In this document: one piece after another, positions 2,691-35,322 of the stretch | Numbering within the stretch: position 1 is the first letter of the stretch | How the letters are laid out: each line of letters opens with the position of its first letter | From: Deltaproteobacteria bacterium | GTDB taxonomy: Bacteria > Myxococcota_A > Polyangia > Polyangiales > Houyiibacteriaceae | Reading direction: 5' to 3' | DNA: 45,468 nt | Assembly: GCA_034670305.1 (NCBI GenBank) | Contig: JAXMNT010000060.1 | Coordinates: 1-45,468, forward strand | Translations under genes and position numbers: made by a program | The notes under the pieces: model-generated | Told to the model about the DNA's origin: nothing | The model's database searches: none | Seen by the model: only the letters and a program-made list of their open reading frames with translations

Positions 2691-3029
2691 CTAGGCCAGG
2701 TAGACGAGGCCATCGCGGACCACGATGGCCACTGGGCGCAGCCGCGCTGCCGGGGGCTCGACGCCCTCTCCGGTGCAGGCGTCGTAGCTCCAGAAGTGGG
2801 CGGTGCAGGTCAACACGCCTTTGCACAGCTCGCCTTCGCTCAACTTGATGCGGGCGTGGGCGCAGCGGTCTTCGTACGCGTGGAGCGCGCCGCCGCTTCG
2901 CAGCACGACGACGGGGCCAGCTGGTGTCTCCACGCCGATCATCCCGTCCTCGGCGACCTCGTCGGCGGCGACGAGGGGGGCGCCGACTTCCGCGCCCTCC
3001 GTCGCCTGTGGGTCTTCTTCTGGCGTCAC
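2691..3029 (-). CDS. Rieske [2Fe-2S] ferredoxin (non-haem oxygenase ferredoxin type)
   Basis: Motifs DRCAH ... [16 protein letters not shown] start at 3029 with GGAGAAGG upstream. Confidence 0.85.
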
Positions 3030-3060
3030 GGCGCCTTCTCCGGCGGCGTCCGTGCGTTGC

Positions 3061-4740
3061 CTAGAGACGGCGTCGCCACAGGAGCGCGGCCGCGAGCAAC
3101 AAGAGCGCACCCGCGTCCCCGCCCCCGGTGCTGCGGCACGCGCAGCCGGGATCCGCGGCGCCAGGCACGACGCGTCCGGCGTCGGTGCCATCGCCGCCTG
3201 CGTCTTCTTCGACTGGCGGTTCACCGGCGTCTTCGCCCGGTGGCACGCCGGCGTCTTCACCCGGCGGCACGCCGGCGTCTTCGCCCATCTCGGGGATGTC
3301 GACGCATTCGCCGGTCGTGCACATCTGACCGGGCGGGCAGACCGCGCCGGCGCACGCGTCGTTGCAGGCGCCCGCTTCACAGACCGTACCCGCGGGACAC
3401 ATCATCGACGCGCACGCGTCGTCCACGCAGTGCCCATCCGCACCACAGGTTTCCCCAGCCGCGCAGCCCGAGAGATCGCAGCGGCCGATGCACGCGCCGT
3501 CCGAGCAGACCTGGCATTCCGGATCGCACGTCAGCGTCTCGCACAGATCCAGACAGCGTCCGGCGCGGCACTCCTGGCCGGCCGGGCACGCGATGCCGTC
3601 GCACGCGCCGATGCAGCTGCCGCCGCGGCACCGCTGTCCTTCGGGGCACTCGATGCCTTCGCACGCAGCGTCCACGCAGCGGCCGTCGGCGTTGCAGGTC
3701 TCGCCGTCCATGCAGCCACCTTCGAAGCACACGTCGCGGCACACGCCGCGGTCGCAGATCTCGGTGCCGGTGCAGAGCGCGTCCCCTTCGTCGGTGGTGC
3801 CGTCGCAGTCGTTGTCGACCGCGTCGCAGCGCTCGCCGCTCGGCTCGAGCACGGCCTGGCATTCGGTCCCCATGCCGACGCAGTTGGTGCGGCCTTCGCC
3901 GCAGACGCCGAGCGCGCCGGTGTCGCAGGGCATGCCGGCGTCCGGACACACGACGGTTCCGCCGCGCACCTGAAAGCGCCAGATGCCGGTCTCACCCACG
4001 TTGGAGTCCGTGCAGAGCACGTTGCGGATCCCGTCCATGCGCGAGCCCATGATCGCGACGAAGTTGGTTGAGTCGCCCGCGTCGAATCCCGCTTGGGCCG
4101 GGGTGCCGCCGAGGCCGCCGCTTCCGCCCGAGGCATCGCCGGTCTCCCACTCGCAGCGGTTGTAACGAAACTCCACGTCGAAGTCGCCGGCGCCGCCGCA
4201 GCCTTCGACCGCGGTGAGGATCAGCTGGAAGCTCATGCGCCGGTCGGTGTTGCAGTTGTAGTAGCCGACCCGGTCCCAGGTCACGACCAGCCGCCCAGCC
4301 TCCATGGTCCACCACACGCCGTTCTCGGGCGGGTTGTGGCACGGCGAACAGACGGTGCAGGTCACGCCCACCGATCCCTGGCACGCGCCGCCGGCGGCGA
4401 AGTTGTTCCGGATGTCCACGTCGCCCCAGTAGGGCGCGATCATCGGCTGGTCGGCGACCGGGAACGCGGCGGGCGTGAACGTCGAGAGGCGCTCGCTGAA
4501 GGTGATGTTGCCGTTCGTGTTCACGAAGATGGAGGAGTGGGTGCGGGAGAAGAACCGCAGCCCCGCCGGGAAGAACGGCGTGAGGTCGATCTCCGCGCTC
4601 GAGCCGTCGTCGTTGGGGCTCAAACACTGGGTGCCGTAGCCAGCGGTGCCGCCGAAGCCGTTGATCATCGAGGCCTGCGCGTGCACCAGCTGGGGTGCGA
4701 ACCAGGTGGCGACGAGAAGTAGGAAGGCGGCGCGGAACAT
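3061..4740 (-). CDS. Nidogen-like (NIDO) domain, Cys-rich, MYXO-CTERM surface protein
   Basis: Signal peptide MFRAAFLLL, NIDO motifs (NDDGSS, FVNTNGNITF, IAPYWGDVD, QAGFDAG, SNVG..GIWRF), DNDCDG and Cys repeats, and the C-terminal tail GCAC...LLLLAAALLWRRRL. Confidence 0.85.
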   Translation of the reverse strand: MFRAAFLLLVATWFAPQLVHAQASMINGFGGTAGYGTQCLSPNDDGSSAEIDLTPFFPAGLRFFSRTHSSIFVNTNGNITFSERLSTFTPAAFPVADQPMIAPYWGDVDIRNNFAAGGACQGSVGVTCTVCSPCHNPPENGVWWTMEAGRLVVTWDRVGYYNCNTDRRMSFQLILTAVEGCGGAGDFDVEFRYNRCEWETGDASGGSGGLGGTPAQAGFDAGDSTNFVAIMGSRMDGIRNVLCTDSNVGETGIWRFQVRGGTVVCPDAGMPCDTGALGVCGEGRTNCVGMGTECQAVLEPSGERCDAVDNDCDGTTDEGDALCTGTEICDRGVCRDVCFEGGCMDGETCNADGRCVDAACEGIECPEGQRCRGGSCIGACDGIACPAGQECRAGRCLDLCETLTCDPECQVCSDGACIGRCDLSGCAAGETCGADGHCVDDACASMMCPAGTVCEAGACNDACAGAVCPPGQMCTTGECVDIPEMGEDAGVPPGEDAGVPPGEDAGEPPVEEDAGGDGTDAGRVVPGAADPGCACRSTGGGDAGALLLLAAALLWRRRL

Positions 4741-26402: not shown

Positions 26403-27323
26403 GTGATGACTCGAGTGCGAACGAGCTTCTTGGCGGTGTGTGCAGTCCTTCTCTGGGGATGCGTCGGCGAGCTCTCGATCTCGGGCCCCGCCGGACCCAT
26501 CCCCGACACCGGACCCCGAGCGGACTCTGGACCCGGCGTGGACGGTGGACCGGGCATGGACGCCGGACCGGGCGTGGATGGCGGACCGGGCGCAGACAGT
26601 GGGCCGGGCGTCGACAGCGGACCGCGCGTGGACAGCGGCCCGAGTGAACCCGAGTGTGGCGACGGTCGCACCGAGGGCACCGAACGGTGCGACGGCGACT
26701 GCCCGACCAGCTGCGCGCCGCGCATGTGCGAGACGGGACGGCTGCGCGGCGACGCGACCATGTGTTCCTCGTACTGCGACTACAGCCCGGTCACGACGTG
26801 CATGAACGACGACGGCTGCTGCCCGTCTTCGTGTTCGCCTTCGACGGACAACGACTGCACCGGCCTCGACTGCCGCGACTACGACAGCTGGCCGACCGAC
26901 TGGGCCGCCGAAGAAGTACGCGCAGTGGACGAGATGAATCGCCACCGGCTCGCTGGCACCGACTGTCCGAGCGGGCCCAAACCGCCGGTCCCCGCCCTCG
27001 TCCTCAACCGCGAACTTCGCATCGCCGCGCGTTGCCACAGCATGGACATGGCGACGAACAACTTCTTCAGCCACACCGGGTCCGACGGCAGCAACTTCAG
27101 CGCGCGGGTGCGGGATGCGGGCTACACCGGTGGTCCAAGGGCCGAGAACATCGCCGCGGGCAACGGCACCGGTGTCGCGAGTGTCGGCCAGTGGATGACC
27201 AGCACATCCGGCCACTGCGACGCAAACATGAACAGCGGCTACAACGAAGTCGGGATCGGCTACATGCGCCTGTCGGGCACCATGTGGACCCACTACTGGA
27301 CCGCCAACTTCGGCAGCCGCTAG
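26403..27323 (+). CDS. CAP/SCP domain lipoprotein with Cys-rich segment
   Basis: Lipobox LLWGC, GPGVDG repeats, and AARCHSMDM, FFSH, ENIA, GHC..M and VGIGY motifs. Confidence 0.85.
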   Translation: MMTRVRTSFLAVCAVLLWGCVGELSISGPAGPIPDTGPRADSGPGVDGGPGMDAGPGVDGGPGADSGPGVDSGPRVDSGPSEPECGDGRTEGTERCDGDCPTSCAPRMCETGRLRGDATMCSSYCDYSPVTTCMNDDGCCPSSCSPSTDNDCTGLDCRDYDSWPTDWAAEEVRAVDEMNRHRLAGTDCPSGPKPPVPALVLNRELRIAARCHSMDMATNNFFSHTGSDGSNFSARVRDAGYTGGPRAENIAAGNGTGVASVGQWMTSTSGHCDANMNSGYNEVGIGYMRLSGTMWTHYWTANFGSR

Positions 27324-27353
27324 CCCCGGCTGTGATCCGTGGAGGGTTGCGCC

Positions 27354-27413
27354 GGCGCGCTGCGCGTCGGCACGCTGCGCGTCGGCACGCCGCGCAGCGG
27401 CACGCTGCGCGTT
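27354..27413. repeat. Intergenic 15-bp tandem repeat x4
   Basis: Consensus GGCACGCTGCGCGTC, four units. Confidence 0.75.
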
Positions 27414-27459
27414 GGCTCGCGCCATCAGACGTCGCGCGACCTCTGATACCGTGCACACC

Positions 27460-28242
27460 GTGGGGTATCGGGAGCCAGCTGCGCGGGCGTCGGGCGTGGT
27501 GCGGCTGGGGCCGTTTCGTCGGAAGTGGCGTGGCCTCGCGGTGCTCCCGGTCACGTGCTTGTTCTTCGTGGTCTTCGTGGTCGCGGCCGGCGAGACCGTC
27601 GCGCTCGAGTGCACGGACGGCGCGTGCCAGGTGCAGACCGCGTACCTGTGGGTGTTCGCAACCGAGACGCACGAGTTTCGGGCGGACCAGATCGAACACA
27701 CGAACGCGCACAGCAACCGCAACGGCACCCGCGTGCGGCTGTACCCACGGGACGGCGAGACCCTCGAGTTCCAGCTCGGCGCGCTCTTCGGAGGTTCGGA
27801 CCACGAGGCGATCGCGGCGTACGTGGATCAACCGGTTGGCACCCTGCACGTCTCATCGAACCCAAGCGGCTTTCTCGTCGTCGTGTTCGCGATCGGGCTC
27901 GGCCTCATGGGCGCGGTGTTGGTCGGGCTTCTGAGGATGCCCTCGTGGATCGAAGTCCACGCGCGCCACGACCACCTGGAGGTCGTTGAGCGGTGGCCGA
28001 CCCACGCCAAGACGCGGCGGCTGCCCCTCGATCGTCCGACCGAAGTTCGAGTACTCGAGCGACGCGCCCGAACGTTCTGGGACGGGGACGTGCCGGGGGC
28101 GCTTCTGCAGATCGTCGACGCGGGGGAGCGCGTCCGCGCCCTCACCCTCCGCCCCATGCCCCACCCTGAGCGGCACCGCGCCGCCGCGCAGGCGCTGCGG
28201 CAAGCGCTCGGGCTCGCTCCGGGAGGCAGGGAAGAAGAGTGA
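27460..28242 (+). CDS. Hypothetical membrane protein (2 TM)
   Basis: GYR N-terminal motif, two TM helices and a C.DG.C loop. The GTG start is preceded by a TACCGT -10-like box. Confidence 0.6.
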   Translation: MGYREPAARASGVVRLGPFRRKWRGLAVLPVTCLFFVVFVVAAGETVALECTDGACQVQTAYLWVFATETHEFRADQIEHTNAHSNRNGTRVRLYPRDGETLEFQLGALFGGSDHEAIAAYVDQPVGTLHVSSNPSGFLVVVFAIGLGLMGAVLVGLLRMPSWIEVHARHDHLEVVERWPTHAKTRRLPLDRPTEVRVLERRARTFWDGDVPGALLQIVDAGERVRALTLRPMPHPERHRAAAQALRQALGLAPGGREEE

Positions 28243-28322
28243 CGCGGCGCGATGGTTGCGTCCGCGTACGCACTCGTCGCGCAAATCCTGCGTCATCGCT
28301 TCGTTCAACGTAGGAATCACGC

Positions 28323-28338
28323 TGGCACGCCGCGTGCG
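28323..28338 (+). promoter_or_regulatory. Candidate sigma54 promoter for the Crp/Fnr gene
   Basis: TGGCACG-CCGC-GTGCG (GG-N10-GC), ending 13 nt before ATG 28352. Confidence 0.45.
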
Positions 28339-28351
28339 AGGTCGGGTCCCC

Positions 28352-29077
28352 ATGCACGCGACCTCGACCATCCCGCCGGCCTTCCGCTCCAAGCTCCGGG
28401 AAAGCCTTCGAGGCTGTCGGCTCTTCCAGGGCATGACCGAATCCGAGCTGTGTGAACTCGAGGGGTTGTGCGCTCGGGTTCGGCTCCGCCGGTTCGAACC
28501 GGTCTGGAAGCTGGGCGACCGGGCGACGTCGTTCCACGTCCTGCTCGAGGGGCTGGTCGAGCTGAGGCGGCCGGCGGGCGGCTACGACGCGACCGTCATG
28601 GCGATCTTCGGACCCACCGAATGTCTCGCGGTCCCCGTCGCGCTCACCCGCGGGGTGTACGGCGCGGACGCGGTGGTGGTGAGCGAACACGCGGTGCTCT
28701 TGACCGTCCAAGCGGCGCCGCTGCTGGAGCGCATGCACCGCGACGTGCGGTTGGCGATGGCGCTGAACGCCGCGCTGCTGGAGCAGGTCCAGCTGCTGCA
28801 CCGCAAGATCGACGTGATGTCCGCGGGCACCGTGCAGCAGCGTCTCGCCCGCTTCCTCTTCGACCTCGCCGATCGTTTCGGCGACGAGTTCGAGAACGGG
28901 GAGATTCAGATCCCGTTCTCGTTGTCGCGGGAGCAACTCGCGCACTACGTCAACGCGCGGGAGGAGACCGTCATCCGCGCACTGAGTGCGTGGCGCAAGG
29001 AAGGGCTCATCGAGTTCCGGCCGGGCGCCATCGTGTTTCCGCGCGGCGAGGCGATCCGCGAAACGCTCGCGGCCTAG
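28352..29077 (+). CDS. Crp/Fnr-family regulator (DNR/NnrR/HcpR-like, probable NO sensor)
   Basis: cNMP-like beta-barrel, QRLARFL, and the HTH SREQLA...ETVIR. It lacks the N-terminal FNR Cys cluster and lies next to the nor genes. Confidence 0.85.
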   Translation: MHATSTIPPAFRSKLRESLRGCRLFQGMTESELCELEGLCARVRLRRFEPVWKLGDRATSFHVLLEGLVELRRPAGGYDATVMAIFGPTECLAVPVALTRGVYGADAVVVSEHAVLLTVQAAPLLERMHRDVRLAMALNAALLEQVQLLHRKIDVMSAGTVQQRLARFLFDLADRFGDEFENGEIQIPFSLSREQLAHYVNAREETVIRALSAWRKEGLIEFRPGAIVFPRGEAIRETLAA

Positions 29078-29109
29078 ACCCTCGCGGCCTCGCCAAGAAG
29101 TCCGCCGAC

Positions 29110-29123
29110 CTGACCTATGTCAT
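29110..29123 (+). promoter_or_regulatory. DNR/FNR-like box upstream of HiPIP
   Basis: CTGAC-CTAT-GTCAT, with a CATGGT -10 at 29146-29151 that places the box at -41.5. Confidence 0.65.
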
Positions 29124-29206
29124 CGCCGCGGCGGGAGCATGCCTCCATGGTCCCGATTCGGTGCGCCCCATCACCCTCTTTCATTGCGCCCTGCCCAGGA
29201 GACCTC

Positions 29207-29512
29207 ATGTCCAAACACTCTCGTCGCGTCTTTCTCGCCCGAATCACCGCTGGTGGCGCCGCGCTCGGGGTTCTCCAAGCCGTCGGTTGCGGCGGAGGCG
29301 ACTCGGTGTCTTGCGACACCAACATCACGCCCGACGCCCGCCGCACCCGCACCGCGCTCCGGTACGTCGACGTGACCAGCGATGCGAGCAAACGCTGCAT
29401 CTCGTGCACGCTGTACACCGGCGACGCCACTGCGTGCGGAACCTGCTCTGCGGTGCCCGGTCCGATCCACCCGGACGGAACCTGCTCGGCCTTCGTCGCG
29501 ATCCCGGCCTGA
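29207..29512 (+). CDS. High-potential iron-sulfur protein (HiPIP), Tat-exported lipoprotein
   Basis: SRRVFL Tat motif, AVGC lipobox, LRYV...RCISCTLY...C..VPGPIHPDG.C HiPIP pattern, and an AGGAG RBS. Confidence 0.8.
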   Translation: MSKHSRRVFLARITAGGAALGVLQAVGCGGGDSVSCDTNITPDARRTRTALRYVDVTSDASKRCISCTLYTGDATACGTCSAVPGPIHPDGTCSAFVAIPA

Positions 29513-29547
29513 CCGTCGCTGAACTGCGGGGTCGGTGACCCCGCGTC

Positions 29548-31428
29548 TCAACCCGGGTGCATGGCGGCGACCGCTTCGCCGAGCGCGCGCGGGAGTGAGC
29601 GCGGCTGGCGCAGAAGATGGAAGCGCCCCCGGCCGAACATCTGCGGCAGGTGAAAGCGTGCGTCGTGGTCGATCGCGAACGCGTGGATGTGGACGCCGCG
29701 GGCTTCCGCATCGAGCACCGCACGCCGAACATCCGCGATGCCGTGCCGACCTTCGTAGCGGTCGTAGTCGTTCGGTTTGCCGTCGGTGAGCACGACCACG
29801 AGTCGCCGACGCGCGTCGGTGCGGGAGAGCAGCTCCGTCGCGTGCCGCAGCGCGGGGCCGATCCGGGTGTAGCCGCGCGGCTGCAGGTCGGCGAGGCGGT
29901 GCCGCGCGTCGGTCCACTCTTCGGTGAACGTCTTGAGGATCTCGAAGCGGCAGTCGAGCCGCGTCTGGCTGTGGAACGCGGCCATCGACAGCTCGACCCG
30001 CACCGCGGAGAGCGCCTCACCGAGCGTCACCGCCGCGTCGATCTCGAGGTCGAGCACCCGGACGTCGTCGACCCAGCCGTCGGTGGACAGACTTCCGTCG
30101 AGCAAGAGCATCACCGACAAAGACGGATGGGAGGGCCGCCGGTCTCGGTAGAGCCGGGCCGGAACCGTGGTGCCCGCGGCGAGGCAGGCGTGCCAATCCA
30201 CCAGCGCGTCGAGATCGATCTCCGCGCCATCGAGCTGGCGGTTCTTCCACCGGCGCGACGCGTCGAGGCGTTCGAGTTCGGCGCGCACCGCCTCGTGCTC
30301 CCGCTGCAGTCGGCGCACGCGCGCACGGATCGCCGCCTCCGCATCGGCCCGCGCCATCCGGGCGGGTGGGCGCCCGGCGCGCACTCGGCACCAGGCGTCT
30401 CGGTACTGCCCGCGTTTGCGATCCCACTCCGGGTAAGGCGTGCCCTCCGAGTCCTGGTCCGCGACTTCGCCCGAGCCTTCGAGCATCACGTCCACCCGCA
30501 AGAGCGACTGGGCGCGCTCCAGGCTCCGAACGACTTCGCGCAGATCGAGCTCGTCGATCGCATCCGCGTGCGCGTCCATCTCGTCGTCTCCGTCCAGGTG
30601 CTTCATGCCGCCCTGGTACTCCTCGGCGGTGTGAACCTTCTCGAAGGAGTGGACGAGCGGGTTGTCCTGCAGCGGATCGGTCGGCAGCTCGACCCGCTCG
30701 GGCGACTCCAGGACCTTGCCTTTGCGCTCGGTGCCGTCGGGGAGCGCGTCGGCGTCGCCGGTCCCAGAGACGCTCTGTCCGTGGGCGGGTTCGGTGCCGA
30801 TCGCGCCGAAGAGCGGGAACACCGGCAGGGCACCTTCCAACGACGCGGTGCGCTCCATGAACTCCTCGAAGGACAGATCCGGTGGACCGATCTCACACTC
30901 GATGCCGAGCCCCACCGCCCGCGCGATCCACCGTTCGAACTGGGCCTGCGCGCGGGACGTGGGCTGGCCCGCGCGTTCGAGCAGGAGGGACCGGGTGAGC
31001 GCGACGCAGGGCCGGGCCGCCCCTGGGAGTTCGGCGCGCATCTGCCGGAGCACCGGCTCGGCGAGAAACGCGGTCGCCCACACCCGCGCACGGGGACTCT
31101 CCGGGAGCGGTCGCAACCGTCTCGCGAGAGGCCGGGCGTACGAGGCCCACACCGCGCGAACCAGGTACGCGCGTTCGTTGCCCGCGCGCGTCGCCGCCAT
31201 GTCCAGGTGCGCCGGCAACAAGAGCACGTCTCCCTGCCACCCGCCGTCCGCTTCCGCTTCGCGCACCGTGATCGACCGTTCGGCGACCGCGCTCGAGAGC
31301 CACTGGAGCCGGTCGCGCTGCGATTCGAGGGCGACCCGCCGTGCGAGCACTTTGGCGGCAGGTCGGGGCGCGCGCATGCCCCGCCACGCGCCGTGGAACC
31401 AGCCGAAGATGGCTTCGTCCCACCCCAT
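29548..31428 (-). CDS. norD: Nitric oxide reductase activation protein NorD (VWA)
   Basis: HSFEKV.T, YPEWD, DGSLS MIDAS, YTRIGPALRHA and LTDGKPND.D.YEG motifs. Confidence 0.9.
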   Translation of the reverse strand: MGWDEAIFGWFHGAWRGMRAPRPAAKVLARRVALESQRDRLQWLSSAVAERSITVREAEADGGWQGDVLLLPAHLDMAATRAGNERAYLVRAVWASYARPLARRLRPLPESPRARVWATAFLAEPVLRQMRAELPGAARPCVALTRSLLLERAGQPTSRAQAQFERWIARAVGLGIECEIGPPDLSFEEFMERTASLEGALPVFPLFGAIGTEPAHGQSVSGTGDADALPDGTERKGKVLESPERVELPTDPLQDNPLVHSFEKVHTAEEYQGGMKHLDGDDEMDAHADAIDELDLREVVRSLERAQSLLRVDVMLEGSGEVADQDSEGTPYPEWDRKRGQYRDAWCRVRAGRPPARMARADAEAAIRARVRRLQREHEAVRAELERLDASRRWKNRQLDGAEIDLDALVDWHACLAAGTTVPARLYRDRRPSHPSLSVMLLLDGSLSTDGWVDDVRVLDLEIDAAVTLGEALSAVRVELSMAAFHSQTRLDCRFEILKTFTEEWTDARHRLADLQPRGYTRIGPALRHATELLSRTDARRRLVVVLTDGKPNDYDRYEGRHGIADVRRAVLDAEARGVHIHAFAIDHDARFHLPQMFGRGRFHLLRQPRSLPRALGEAVAAMHPG

Positions 31429-31429
31429 C

Positions 31430-32248
31430 TCAGAACACGAGGTCGGCGAGGTCCTGCAGCGCGTGCCGCGCCTCGGCATCGTCCGTCAGGGGTGCGACGA
31501 TGCCATGCGTGCACGCGATCCGTGGCGCGATGCCGGCGGCCATGAGGAGGCCCGCGCCGATGAGCAAACGGGTCGATACCGTCTCGGTCAGCCCGAGCTC
31601 CCCGAGCGCGCGGATCTTCCGGGCCAGCACCACCAGCCGCTTGGCGCGGGCCAGTTCGAGGCCTGCTTCTCGCGCCACGATCTCGGCTTCGGCCGCGGGC
31701 GGCGGGTAGTCGAAGTCGATGCCGACGAAGCGCTGCCGGGTCGACGGTTTGAGCTCCTTGAACCCATGCCGGTACCCGGGGTTGAAGCTCGCGACGAGCT
31801 GGAACGCCGGCGGCGCCTTCAACGTCTCCGACCGGCGGTCCACGTGCAGCTCCCGCCGGTGGTCGGTGAGCGGATGCAACACCACCACGACGTCCGCCCG
31901 CGCTTCCGCGACCTCGTCGAGGTAGAGCAAACCGCCTGAGCGCACCGCACGGGTCACCGGGCCGTCCTGCCAGACGGTGTCGCCGCCGCGCACGAGCCAG
32001 CGCCCGAGCAGATCCGCGCCGCTCGTCTCGTCGTTGCAGGCGACCGTGATGAGTTCGAGACCGAGGCGCGCCGCCATCGCCTCGACGAAGCGCGACTTGC
32101 CACAGCCGGTCGGACCCTTGAGCAAGACCGGCAGTTCGGACGCATGCGCCGCGGCGAACACCGCCTCCTCGTGCCCCGTCGCCTTGTAGTAGGGCTCGGC
32201 CCCGTCGGACGGCGCCACTTCGGAAGATGGGGCGATGTCGGCGGTCAC
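31430..32248 (-). CDS. norQ: CbbQ/NirQ/NorQ AAA+ ATPase
   Basis: GPTGCGKS, YLDEV.EAR, HPLTD.RR, KPSTRQRF and STRLL motifs. Confidence 0.93.
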   Translation of the reverse strand: MTADIAPSSEVAPSDGAEPYYKATGHEEAVFAAAHASELPVLLKGPTGCGKSRFVEAMAARLGLELITVACNDETSGADLLGRWLVRGGDTVWQDGPVTRAVRSGGLLYLDEVAEARADVVVVLHPLTDHRRELHVDRRSETLKAPPAFQLVASFNPGYRHGFKELKPSTRQRFVGIDFDYPPPAAEAEIVAREAGLELARAKRLVVLARKIRALGELGLTETVSTRLLIGAGLLMAAGIAPRIACTHGIVAPLTDDAEARHALQDLADLVF

Positions 32249-33678
32249 TCGGCGGGCTCGGGTTCGAGGGCCGCTTCCGGTTTCGACTTGGACTTGGACT
32301 TGGACTTGGACTTGGACTTGGGCTCGGGCTCGGGCTCGACGTCCGGATCGCCGCCGGTGAGTTCTCCGCGCGGCAGGCCCTGGCGGATGAAGTTGTACAT
32401 GAACGCGCCCACCCCGAGCGTGAAGAGCGAGGCGGCCAGGATCAGCCCCCAGAAGTGCACCTCCACCTCTTCCTGCACCGCGAGGAACTCCATGCCCATG
32501 CGGCGCTCAAGCACCACCTGCGTCACGCCGGCGACGGCGAACGCGAGCGTCATCGAGATCATGCCGATGTTCGATGTCCAGAACGCGAAGGTCGCGCTCG
32601 GTTTGTCGTGCATCTTGCGGCCGGTGAGCAGCGGCATCGCGTACGTGATGATCGCGAGGATCAACATCGCGTACGCGCCCCAGAACGCCATGTGCCCGTG
32701 CATGGCCGTCACGAGGGTTCCGTGCGTGTACATGTTCACCTGCGGCAGCGTGTGCGCGAAGCCGAGAAACCCGGCGCCGACGAACGACATCACGCAGGTG
32801 CCGACCGTCCACGCGAGCGCAGTGCGGTTGGGGTGTTTGCGCCCCCCCCGTTTGGCCATCGTGATGCCGTACATGGCCATGCCGAGGAACGCGAGCGGCT
32901 CGAGCGCGCTGAAGATGCCGCCGATCCAGAGCCAGTAGCTCGGGGTGCCGATGTAGTAGTAGTGGTGGCCGGTCCCGAGGATGCCGGAGAGGAACGTCAG
33001 CCCGACGATGACGTAGAGCCACTTCTCGATGACCTCGCGGTCGATGCCGGTGAGTTTGATCAGGAGGAACGAGAGGATGCCGCCCATGATCAACTCCCAG
33101 ACGCCCTCCACCCAGAGGTGCACGACCCACCAGCGCCAGTAGGAGTCTTCGGTCTGGTTGTCGGTCGGGATCATGCCCGGCAGGTAGAGCAGCGCGGCCA
33201 TCAAGAGGCCGAAGAACAGGACGGCCGCGGTGGTGGTGATCCGCTTGCCCTTCCAGATCGTCATCCCGATGTTCGCGATGAAGAGCAAGACGTCGACCAC
33301 CACGAGGTAGTCGAGCGGCCGCGGGATCTCGAGGAACTTGCGGCCCTCCCACCAGCCGAAGTGAAAGCCGATGATCGCGGTGACGCCGACCAGGAGGAAC
33401 GCGACGAGCTGCACGATCGCCAGGCGCGGCCAGTAGATCTCGCGGTCGCACTCTTCGGGCACGATGTAGTAGGCCGCGCCCATGAAGCCGCACAGGTTCC
33501 ACATCACCAGCAGGTTGGTGTGGGTCGCGCGGGCGGTGTGGAACGGGATGAAGTCGTGCAGCCCGTCCCATCCGACATGGGCGAACGCCATGATGAAGCC
33601 GTAGACGATCTGTAGACCGAACAGCAGCATGCAGGCGGCGAAGAACCAGTAGGCGACCCGCTGTGATTCGTATTTCAT
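32245..33678 (-). CDS. norB: Nitric oxide reductase large subunit (cNOR)
   Basis: WWVVHLWVEGVWE, GTGHHYY, ALEP and HGHMAFWG motifs, with about 12 TM helices. Confidence 0.95.
   Translation of the reverse strand: MKYESQRVAYWFFAACMLLFGLQIVYGFIMAFAHVGWDGLHDFIPFHTARATHTNLLVMWNLCGFMGAAYYIVPEECDREIYWPRLAIVQLVAFLLVGVTAIIGFHFGWWEGRKFLEIPRPLDYLVVVDVLLFIANIGMTIWKGKRITTTAAVLFFGLLMAALLYLPGMIPTDNQTEDSYWRWWVVHLWVEGVWELIMGGILSFLLIKLTGIDREVIEKWLYVIVGLTFLSGILGTGHHYYYIGTPSYWLWIGGIFSALEPLAFLGMAMYGITMAKRGGRKHPNRTALAWTVGTCVMSFVGAGFLGFAHTLPQVNMYTHGTLVTAMHGHMAFWGAYAMLILAIITYAMPLLTGRKMHDKPSATFAFWTSNIGMISMTLAFAVAGVTQVVLERRMGMEFLAVQEEVEVHFWGLILAASLFTLGVGAFMYNFIRQGLPRGELTGGDPDVEPEPEPKSKSKSKSKSKSKPEAALEPEPAE
32285..32338 (-). 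repeat. Coding hexamer repeat in the NorB tail (EP)3-(KS)n
   Basis: GACTTG x6 followed by GGCTCG x3 on the + strand. Confidence 0.85.
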
Positions 33679-33686
33679 GACGTCAA

Positions 33687-34376
33687 TCAGTTCTCGAGGG
33701 AGGCCAGGTAGTCGGACAGGTCGCCGATCTGCGCTTCGGTGAGCGGCAGCTTCGGCATGGTGGTCTCAGGGCGGATCGCGGTGGGATCCGTGAGCCATTG
33801 CGTGAAGTAGTCCCGGTCGAATCGGCCGGCGATTCCGTCGAGCGCGGGACCGACGGATCCGCCGCGCCCACCGACCGCGTGGCACGCCACGCACATCTGG
33901 TTGAACACCAGCGGCCGGCCGTCCGCGACGGTGGCTTGGTCCGTGGTTCCGGCAGCTTCCGCGAGTGGTGGCGCAGGCGGGAAGCCGTTCAGATCCATCC
34001 CATTGATCCACTCGAGGAACGCGACGAGGTCTTCGATCTCCTGGTCGGTGAAGTCGTACCGCTGCATCCGCCGCCGGCCCGGGTACATCGCCTCCGGATC
34101 CCGGAGCATGGCCGCGATGAACTCCGGACCCCGCCGCTCGTACACCCGCGTCAGCTCCGGCGCGTAGTACGCGCCCTCCCCCAAGATCGTGTGACAGCCC
34201 ATGCAGTTCGATCGGTCGAAGAGGTGTTTGCCTCGAATGGCCGATTCGGTGAGGTCCGCCTCGCGGGTCTGCCCGGGGATCTGCCGAAACGTGTCGAGCG
34301 TCAGCAGAATGAACGCGCCGAAGCACGCGACCGTGCCCACGATGAAGAAGGTCCGCGCCGCAGACTTGGTCAGCAT
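33687..34376 (-). CDS. norC: Nitric oxide reductase cytochrome c subunit, di-haem
   Basis: MLTKSAAR N-terminus, TM helix and CMGCHTILGEGAYYAPELT, plus a second domain CVACH...GPALD...MP. Confidence 0.92.
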   Translation of the reverse strand: MLTKSAARTFFIVGTVACFGAFILLTLDTFRQIPGQTREADLTESAIRGKHLFDRSNCMGCHTILGEGAYYAPELTRVYERRGPEFIAAMLRDPEAMYPGRRRMQRYDFTDQEIEDLVAFLEWINGMDLNGFPPAPPLAEAAGTTDQATVADGRPLVFNQMCVACHAVGGRGGSVGPALDGIAGRFDRDYFTQWLTDPTAIRPETTMPKLPLTEAQIGDLSDYLASLEN

Positions 34377-34503
34377 CGGGCGGGTCCCGGCACATGCTGG
34401 GTGGGCCAGAGGCTCGTCGAGGGAGCGCGCGCGGGTGGGGAGACGGCGCCCCCGAGTAAGCCGTTCATGCCCCCGAGGATGGAGGTCTCCTGAAGGGCCC
34501 ACC

Positions 34504-34517
34504 ATGATCCAGGTCAG
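34504..34517 (-). promoter_or_regulatory. DNR/FNR-like box upstream of norC
   Basis: The minus strand reads CTGAC-CTGG-ATCAT, with CATCCT at 34481-34476. The spacing is the same as at the HiPIP promoter. Confidence 0.65.
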
Positions 34518-34671: not shown

Positions 34672-35322
34672 ATGACTGGCAGAGGTTTTCTTCCATGGAT
34701 GTTCGTCGCCCTCTTGGGGTGCGGCGAGGCGGCCCCTGAAGCCGGGACCGAGCCGGCGGAGGCGCCCGAGCCGCCCGCCCAGGCAGCGCCGACCGGGGAC
34801 ACGCGGCTCAGAACCGTCTACGTGCCCGCGTACTCGAGCTTGCCGCACCGAGAGGGTTCGTCGCCTCACTTGGCGGCCGTTCTGCTGAGCGTGCGCAACG
34901 TGGATTCGAGGGCCACCGTCACGCTGACCCACGTCGAGTACTTCGACACCTCGGGCCATCGTGTGCGCCGCTATTTGAGTGCACCCCGCGAGCTGCAGCC
35001 ACTCGAGACGGCGGAGTTCACGGTTCCCGCGTTGGACGACGCCGGGGGGTCCGGGGCGAACTTTCTGGTGTACTGGGAGGGTCCCGCGGACGCGCACTCA
35101 CTTCTCGCGGAGGCGGTGATGACATCGCAGTTCGGCGCGGGGTACGTCGGGTTCACTTCGCGAGGCGTCGAGCTCGAGCACCGGCCAGATCCGTCCCTCT
35201 TCGAGAACGCGGACTCCGACCCGCCGAGCGACCCGCCGAGCGACCCGCCGAGCGACCCGCCGAGCGACGAGCCGAGCGACGTGAACGACGACGGACGTTC
35301 GGCGGCCGACAGCCCGCCGTAG
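34672..35322 (+). CDS. DUF3124-like lipoprotein
   Basis: Lipobox LLGC, VYVPAYS, LSVRN, YFDT.G, GGSGANFLV.W and SRG motifs, with C-terminal PPSD repeats (35218-35280). Confidence 0.8.
   Translation: MTGRGFLPWMFVALLGCGEAAPEAGTEPAEAPEPPAQAAPTGDTRLRTVYVPAYSSLPHREGSSPHLAAVLLSVRNVDSRATVTLTHVEYFDTSGHRVRRYLSAPRELQPLETAEFTVPALDDAGGSGANFLVYWEGPADAHSLLAEAVMTSQFGAGYVGFTSRGVELEHRPDPSLFENADSDPPSDPPSDPPSDPPSDEPSDVNDDGRSAADSPP

Follow-up and report, generated by a model that had tools for sequence, protein, structure and literature searches.

A lipid-anchored HiPIP as candidate electron donor to a nitric oxide reductase with a two-haem NorC under matching FNR-type boxes in a Myxococcota genome

Genes and paired boxes at the nor locus

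The window, a 45,468-nt contig (GenBank JAXMNT010000060.1, here C60) of the 7.93-Mb, 105-contig, 96% complete assembly GCA_034670305.1 of a Deltaproteobacteria bacterium, holds a compact locus in which genes for a Crp/Fnr-family regulator and a HiPIP (an iron–sulfur protein of high potential) converge on norD-norQ-norB-norC, the genes of a cytochrome c-type nitric oxide reductase (cNOR). Both the HiPIP gene and norC are preceded by an FNR-type inverted repeat (Table 1). The original prediction, made from the letters of the window, had described this gene order, with the HiPIP as a lipoprotein exported by twin-arginine translocation (Tat), and both 14-nt boxes; all are present as claimed, as is the equal spacing of a CCTCCAT motif, whose start (29142 and 34485) is +32 nt from each box's first base.

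Related loci were collected from the order to which the window genome belongs (Sandaracinaceae-like Myxococcota); genomes, fetched loci and genera carry G, L and g numbers, respectively. NorB-like genes were present in 81 of 301 sampled genomes at E ≤ 1e-60, a tally that includes the unpublished genome G142. The ±9 kb around norB was fetched for 69 loci from 68 genomes, giving 70 loci with the window; G142, contig-edge fragments and part of a group of ~53% identity were left out. These 70 loci were searched with the window proteins (tblastn). For the control outside the order, NorB was found at E ≤ 1e-100 in 62 genomes of the phylum sample, and 40 loci were fetched.

The small protein encoded between the regulator gene and norD scores 21.1 bits (E 3.8e-4) against the Pfam HiPIP model PF01355, for which the gathering cut-off is 22, and it has no NCBIfam match. 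With the same model, its orthologue in G017 scores 23.9 and the window genome's own paralogue 28.8. A profile of 19 family homologues retrieves from the PDB the Rhodothermus marinus HiPIP 3h31_A (8.4e-28, in an alignment that takes in both extra cysteines described below), 1isu_A (1.8e-8) and 1hpi_A (4.7e-7), and all 15 PDB matches at E values up to 1 are HiPIPs or PioC. The AlphaFold 2 (AF2) model of the window protein has a mean predicted local distance difference test (pLDDT) value of 76.3, rising to ~90 from residue 41 onward and exceeding 90 in the core, and its top 17 PDB matches in Foldseek are all HiPIPs, the best being 3h31 (target TM-score, TMt, of 0.78; root-mean-square deviation, rmsd, of 2.3 Å). 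Seven cysteines are invariant in all 19 aligned homologues: Cys28 of the lipobox, Cys36, Cys64, Cys67, Cys77, Cys80 and Cys93. Cys64, Cys67, Cys80 and Cys93 (C-x2-C ... C ... C) align with the cluster-ligand cysteines of 3h31, and Cys36 and Cys77 constitute the extra pair. The Tat motif SRRVFL at residues 5–10 and the lipobox AVG-C28 were judged by eye; the twin arginine is kept in 17 of the 19 homologues and Cys28 in all. Because the invariant cysteines, the profile match to 3h31_A and the predicted fold agree, the protein is judged a genuine HiPIP that bears a Tat signal and a lipobox; of the original HiPIP call, the Pfam part falls just below the gathering score, and the family profile, fold and ligands uphold it. 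The genome also encodes a second HiPIP of housekeeping type (type A), on contig C38, with the usual G-Y-C-N-S-W C-terminus and no box nearby. Since this separate, box-less type-A protein exists, the notion that the window HiPIP is a generic housekeeping carrier placed there by accident was rejected.

The regulator matches HTH_Crp_2 (57.9 bits) and cNMP_binding (29.1 bits) and has 17 orthologues beside nor in relatives, with the common recognition helix AR(V/E)ET(V/T)IR. No cysteine column is conserved across the window regulator and these 17 proteins, which excludes an FNR-type Fe–S oxygen sensor; FNR proper was likewise rejected, as neither its N-terminal cysteine cluster nor its central cysteine is conserved. 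The earlier label "DNR-like" applies by presumed role only: DNR (3dkw) is a weak match at 2e-6, rank 12 of 16 PDB matches, the best NCBIfam matches reach at most 42.8 bits against cut-offs of at least 211, and no model or structure places the regulator among DNR, NnrR or FNR. Other genes with the box in front of them, among relatives, are the regulator gene (genus g12), a RIC/ScdA di-iron gene, hemerythrin-domain genes and nirK. A gene set of nirK, nor, RIC/ScdA and hemerythrin is typical of nitric oxide (NO)-responsive regulons, so NO is a plausible signal of the regulator. A sigma-54-like −24/−12 element, GGCACG-N4-GTGC, lies at 28324–28337 (+), 28 nt before the regulator ATG; the same element stands 31 nt before the ATG of the orthologue in G017 (L053), which belongs to a different genus, and across the genome the pattern has a density of about 0.012 per kb on each strand. 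Genus g12 has an FNR-type box where this element would be. A two-step cascade may thus lie above the regulator.

The boxes follow the consensus yTGAy-N4-rTCAk, with the core TGAy-N4-rTCA. When the 42 distinct box sites found upstream of norC are compared, xAxxxT hexamers begin at offset 37 in 12, and at no other offset from 26 to 51 in more than 4. If the offset-37 hexamer is read as a −10 element occupying −12 to −7, the centre of the box is at −41.5, in agreement with the position proposed originally; transcription would start near 29158 (+) and 34469 (−). A simple promoter scan gave no sigma-70 consensus promoter at either box, and a terminator scan gave no T-tailed terminator after the HiPIP gene; both absences are uninformative because they are expected for activator-dependent promoters. 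The hairpin between the HiPIP and norD stops (−18.4 kcal/mol, z −2.09 by folding) has no T-run, and we infer for it a possible function as a two-way terminator. Elsewhere in the 7.9-Mb genome, none of 22 other intergenic or near-start copies of the strict box has convincing promoter geometry or a related gene downstream. A third box-like sequence, CTGATTGACGTCAT at 33677–33690 (−), covers the stop of norC together with the start codon of norB; it is probably incidental to the coding sequence, and its distance from norB is too short for a promoter site.

NorB aligns with Pseudomonas aeruginosa NorB (3o0r_B) at 1.2e-118 and retains HLWVEGVWE, GTGHHY and HGHMAF, whose residues we take to be the FeB His/Glu and haem His ligands. 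Residues 2–134 of NorC match 3o0r_C (5.6e-29), including CMGCH, whereas residues 133–229 match other c-type cytochromes, with two CxxCH motifs in all. NorC therefore has a second cytochrome c domain, and a carrier-like domain is built into the enzyme; the original remark that the window holds no other carrier was wrong in this respect. With the NorQ/NorD maturation pair present, and syntenic in most of the 70 loci, norCBQD is by its sequence a canonical FeB-type cNOR, and NO reductase activity is predicted from homology. Two CxxCH motifs are present in all 54 full-length NorC orthologues of the order, and each of the 40 nor loci outside it has a match to the C-terminal domain; judged from these sequences, two-haem NorC is the standard form across the sampled Myxococcota. 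No description of such a NorC turned up in literature searches, which were aimed at HiPIP. NorB of the window ends in a low-complexity C-terminal tail, ...PEPEPKSKSKSKSKSKSKPEAALEPEPAE (residues about 448–477; 32245–32340, −), which appears specific to the window genome because relatives align mostly only to about residue 440–457.

Table 1 Features of the HiPIP–nor locus in the window
Feature	Position	Strand	Basis
Transcription regulator of the Crp/Fnr family, 241 aa, presumed to activate both box promoters	28352..29077	+	Pfam
Box 1, CTGACCTATGTCAT, inverted repeat of FNR type, 96 nt before the HiPIP ATG	29110..29123	+	Sequence read
−10-like hexamer CATGGT, positions 37–42 from start of box 1; predicted transcription start near 29158	29146..29151	+	
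HiPIP precursor, 101 aa, Tat signal and lipobox	29207..29512	+	Profile, fold, Cys pattern
9-bp GC-rich hairpin between convergent HiPIP and norD stops	29525..29545	none	Folding
norD, VWA-domain maturation factor	29548..31479	−	Pfam VWA 34.1 bits; syntenic with norQ in relatives
norQ, MoxR-type AAA+ ATPase	31430..32248	−	Pfam AAA_5 118 bits, CbbQ_C 94 bits
norB, cNOR catalytic subunit, 477 aa	32245..33678	−	3o0r_B match; alignment keeps VVHLWVEGVWELIMG, GTGHHY, HGHMAF
norC, two-haem form, 229 aa: NorC domain and C-terminal class I cytochrome c domain	33687..34376	−	
−10-like hexamer CATCCT, positions 37–42 from start of box 2; predicted transcription start near 34469	34476..34481	−	
Box 2, CTGACCTGGATCAT, 141 nt upstream of norC ATG	34504..34517	−	Sequence read

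Linkage and boxes in related genomes

Of the 70 loci of the order, 11 have a HiPIP gene in the fetched ±9 kb around norB; these are spread over 4 families, 8 genera and at least 5 architectures, compared with ~0.2 linked loci expected by chance (43 HiPIP matches in about 255 Mb, 1.15 Mb examined). The arrangement crp>HiPIP><norDQBC is found only in the window among the 70 loci. In five loci (L065, L073, L089, L101 and L103) the HiPIP gene stands just 5′ of norC on the same strand, and the distance from HiPIP stop to norC start is 3, 15, 18, 6 and 6 nt in G101, G134, G220, G124 and G269, respectively. The architecture norCBQD-nirK-nirV-sco1-HiPIP is present in G011 and G230, and G263 has the same nirK end on a short contig. 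HiPIP is the first gene of a nirK operon in G189, is divergent from ric-crp-norCBQD in G150, and follows ric between nor and nirK in G054. Several genomes of the order, including two that are assembled into one or two contigs, have operons of the HiPIP-norCBQD form, and the recurrence of these operons backs the functional tie between HiPIP and cNOR that had been proposed. Outside the order, HiPIP is near nor in 0 of 40 loci, and 8 of those 40 genomes encode a HiPIP elsewhere; the linkage was thus seen within the order and not in the loci sampled beyond it. A related-locus search with the single HiPIP protein confirmed only 4 loci and is too narrow for a census.

Close matches to the window HiPIP (E ≤ 1e-18) occur in 18 of 301 genomes, and 14 of these 18 have NorB, against a base rate of 81 in 301. 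A tree built from 44 HiPIP domains groups 8 of the 11 nor-linked genes with the boxed genes of G017 and G022 in one clade, whose support (85/93) is not strong and which is marked by a C-terminus of the form ...G-T-C-[DS]-[AS]-F. The other three nor-linked HiPIPs (G054, G220 and G269) are of the common type A; recruitment to nor therefore took place more than once.

The boxes recur as well. In 36 of 69 related loci the 700 nt upstream of norC contain a core box, compared with 0.089 expected per 700 nt. At the HiPIP genes, a box is located −63 to −162 from the start in 10 of 14 genes examined, nine of these 10 being in relatives; of the four exceptions, one has its box at −356 and the rest are operon-internal genes that follow sco1 or ric. 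Four more HiPIP genes have a box at −93 to −125. In genus g18 the HiPIP orthologues, which are the closest (56–68% identity), lie on other contigs than nor, and a box with a CAnnnT hexamer at positions 37–42 is nonetheless present at the unlinked orthologue in four of four genomes (G017, G295, G194 and G240). The norC promoter box of G017, CTGACCCAGATCATGGTGGGG, is near-identical to box 2 of the window. Conversely, a core box was found within 450 nt upstream of none of 8 nor-unlinked type-A HiPIP genes. Co-regulation of HiPIP and nor through one FNR-type box, as put forward from the window, thus finds support in the conservation of boxes among relatives, those with an unlinked HiPIP included.

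These observations bear on the simplest alternative, in which the HiPIP gene and the likeness of the boxes are a coincidence of a GC-rich genome. The window gene order is unique among the 70 loci and the degenerate box is not enriched genome-wide (see below), as such a coincidence would allow. It is already contradicted by the 11 of 70 linked loci in 8 genera where about 0.2 were expected, by the boxes kept at unlinked orthologues and by the control of 0 of 40 loci outside the order, and we regard it as scarcely credible.

Three side observations concern the relatives. In G010 (L027), a sigma-54-type promoter sequence, TGGCACGGCGAGTGCTT, lies ~60–80 nt upstream of norC, and both the FNR-type box and a neighbouring Crp gene are missing; the nor regulator has therefore been swapped within the family. 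The unlinked, box-bearing HiPIP gene of G017 (L023 5347–10399) adjoins an SCO1 gene, a di-haem cytochrome c gene and a gene for a 920-aa molybdopterin oxidoreductase, which could be a further client of its HiPIP. Finally, NirK of relatives is fused to a C-terminal cytochrome c (L022 9866–11386, L024 5467–6975, L025 14203–15741 and others). Next in order come nirV (FGE-sulfatase domain) and the gene of an SCO1/SenC copper chaperone, and nirK has its own FNR-type box in front, just downstream of norD.

Electron supply to the reductase and competing explanations

The respiratory context of the window genome is that of alternative complex III (ACIII). The ACIII marker ActD is present (203 bits), and cytochrome b (PF00033) has no match in this genome; ActD was found in six of six genomes tested and bc1-type cytochrome b (PF00033) in one of six. 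ACIII is described as a HiPIP reductase in the available part of PMC5928083. In the window genome no NirK orthologue was found (best match 26% identity; at 96% completeness a missed nirK is possible), nor was RIC, and cytochrome d1 gives a marginal match only. The available parts of the HiPIP literature describe roles in photosynthesis or iron oxidation (PMC8954225, PMC3753534) and a caa3-type HiPIP oxidase (PMC2842291), and the available part of PMC11214002 describes NOR diversity without a HiPIP donor. No work linking HiPIP to NOR or NirK, and no description of an iron–sulfur donor to nitric oxide reductase, was found in text searches of open-access papers and bioRxiv preprints.

Taken together, the arrangement is probably an FNR-type regulon that co-expresses a cNOR with a HiPIP that feeds it electrons. 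In this reading, a Crp/Fnr activator, whose subfamily travels with the nor genes in this order and lacks the FNR-type cysteine cluster, would bind inverted repeats centred 41.5 nt upstream of two transcription starts. One promoter would drive norCBQD, yielding a canonical FeB-type cNOR with an extra tethered cytochrome c on NorC, and the other would drive a HiPIP of the Rhodothermus marinus type, exported by Tat and anchored to lipid. Most likely this HiPIP carries electrons through the periplasm from ACIII to NOR, with electron entry probably via the extra cytochrome c domain of NorC; in relatives with a cytochrome-c-fused NirK, it would serve NirK too. A broader claim, which we hold tentatively and at somewhat less than an even chance, is that in this order, with ACIII in place of bc1, a distinct NO-regulon lineage of lipid-anchored HiPIP (with C-terminal G-T-C-[DS]-[AS]-F rather than G-Y-C-N-S-W) acts as physiological reductant for the cNOR with two-haem NorC and, in genomes that have it, for cytochrome-c-fused NirK, making up a full ACIII → HiPIP → denitrification branch.

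Several points weigh against a HiPIP that feeds the cNOR within such a regulon. The window protein is 0.9 bit short of the Pfam HiPIP gathering score. The degenerate box [AC]TGA[CT]N4[AG]TCA[TG] is not enriched genome-wide (60 copies, about 71 expected). The regulator is tied to the box by adjacency only; no box lies upstream of its gene in the window, and norC has a box upstream in 13 of the 18 loci where a Crp gene is adjacent versus 23 of the 51 where none is. Of the 18 genomes with a close HiPIP match, four (G012, G287, G075 and G095) have no NorB match, and because related genomes are not independent samples no p-value is given for the co-occurrence. Two-haem NorC occurs without a linked HiPIP in 59 of 70 loci of the order and in 40 of 40 outside it, so a NOR with this NorC does not need a linked HiPIP gene, and ACIII could pass electrons directly to its tethered cytochrome c. 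The HiPIP orthologue of genus g12 ends a nirK-nirV-sco1 operon; the HiPIP is therefore not NOR-specific, and the "dedicated" donor of the original prediction was too strong a term.

This last point leads to a reading in which the HiPIP is a periplasmic carrier that serves the whole NO-regulon branch, cytochrome-c-fused NirK together with NOR, without being a particular partner of NOR, and only the NOR arm is left in the window genome. The closest orthologues in G011, G230 and G263 (60–62% identity) end a nirK-nirV-sco1-HiPIP series behind a box, HiPIP heads the nirK operon in G189, NirK of relatives has a C-terminal cytochrome c domain as NorC does, and no NirK orthologue was found in the window genome, the best match being the one at 26% identity. 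However, HiPIP stands directly before norC in five loci, three of which (L065, L073 and L101) have no nirK in the fetched stretch, and the window genome keeps its HiPIP without NirK, subject to the same limit of 96% completeness. We regard such a shared carrier as unlikely, though it is the rival with the most to recommend it.

A second rival, which we consider distinctly improbable, gives the HiPIP no donor role. The tethered cytochrome c of NorC would be fed directly by ACIII, and the co-induced HiPIP would have another task under NO stress; it could be an NO-tolerant stand-in for the housekeeping HiPIP of the oxidases or an NO-reactive Fe–S protein. Such a role would accommodate the many two-haem NorC loci with no linked HiPIP (59 of 70 and 40 of 40), the second, housekeeping-type HiPIP on another contig, and the replacement of the aromatic G-Y-C-N-S-W by G-T-C-[DS]-[AS]-F in the nor-linked clade; moreover, the available part of PMC5928083 indicates that ACIII can hand electrons to the caa3 oxidase without a soluble carrier. 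Operon coupling as tight as that to norC (gaps of 3–18 nt) is, however, commoner between functional partners than for a protein that substitutes for an aerobic carrier. HiPIPs of type A have been recruited beside nor too (L069, L089 and L103), so the change of C-terminal motif is not required for nor association.

Other features of the window concern its flanks. A gene for a DUF3124 lipoprotein (113.7 bits) at 34672–35322 (+) is divergent from norC; no such gene is beside nor among the 69 related loci, and no −10-like hexamer stands at a matching offset on its side of box 2. The ~1.6 kb upstream of the regulator (26762–28351) contains long open reading frames on both strands, with no Pfam match and no clear codon-position GC bias. 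A Rieske [2Fe-2S] domain protein (57 bits) is encoded at 2691–3380 (−); the genome gave no match to bc1-type cytochrome b (PF00033). A tblastn search of the window (E ≤ 5) gave nothing credible as a remnant of nirK, nirV, sco1, ric or hemerythrin, and its composition profile shows no compositional island.

Implications and comparison with known systems

If the HiPIP does feed the cNOR, it would represent a third type of cNOR donor beside haem and copper proteins. It would also extend the one well-studied HiPIP respiratory role, from ACIII to caa3 in Rhodothermus, to nitrogen-oxide reduction, and would explain how periplasmic denitrification enzymes are fed in bacteria without bc1. For annotation, a HiPIP beside norC or behind a box would flag a NOR-associated carrier, and an FNR-type box with C/A outer bases helps the prediction of NO regulons in Myxococcota. 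The window organism looks like an NO consumer that lacks nitrite reductase, and this is relevant to N2O production where it lives.

The nearest known system is the ACIII → HiPIP → caa3 chain of R. marinus, whose caa3 oxidase is reportedly called a "HiPIP:oxygen oxidoreductase" in the title of a cited work. The HiPIP is of the same subfamily (8.4e-28, two extra cysteines, TMt 0.78), the window genome has ACIII and no bc1 cytochrome b was found in it, and in both cases the acceptor is an enzyme of the haem–copper superfamily with a fused cytochrome c domain. In contrast to that chain, the proposed acceptor here is a cNOR and not an oxygen reductase; the HiPIP gene is under an FNR-type box, often within the nor operon, and the window HiPIP has a lipobox.

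Relative to NorCBQD of P. aeruginosa and Paracoccus denitrificans, the window shares a NorB with the FeB His/Glu motifs, the N-terminal domain of NorC, and norQ together with norD. It differs from the canonical cNOR in the second haem c domain of NorC (229 versus 146 aa) and in its co-regulated candidate donor, which is an iron–sulfur protein, whereas the described donors are c-type cytochromes, azurin or pseudoazurin. The parallel to the DNR, NNR and NnrR regulons lies in a Crp/Fnr-family regulator beside nor, a TGA-N6-TCA core at −41.5 and, in relatives, a regulon that holds nirK, norCBQD and the RIC/ScdA di-iron repair gene. The window regulator differs in not being placed with theirs by sequence (3dkw at 2e-6; NCBIfam scores far below the cut-offs), and the outer box bases are C/A, whereas FNR/DNR sites have the outer bases of TTGAT. 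Finally, the fusion of a class I cytochrome c to the electron-entry subunit, seen in NorC here and in NirK of relatives, resembles that of other cytochrome-c-tethered enzymes, namely NirK with a C-terminal cytochrome c and caa3 subunit II. The cNOR, the FNR-type regulon and the HiPIP carrier are each of a known kind.

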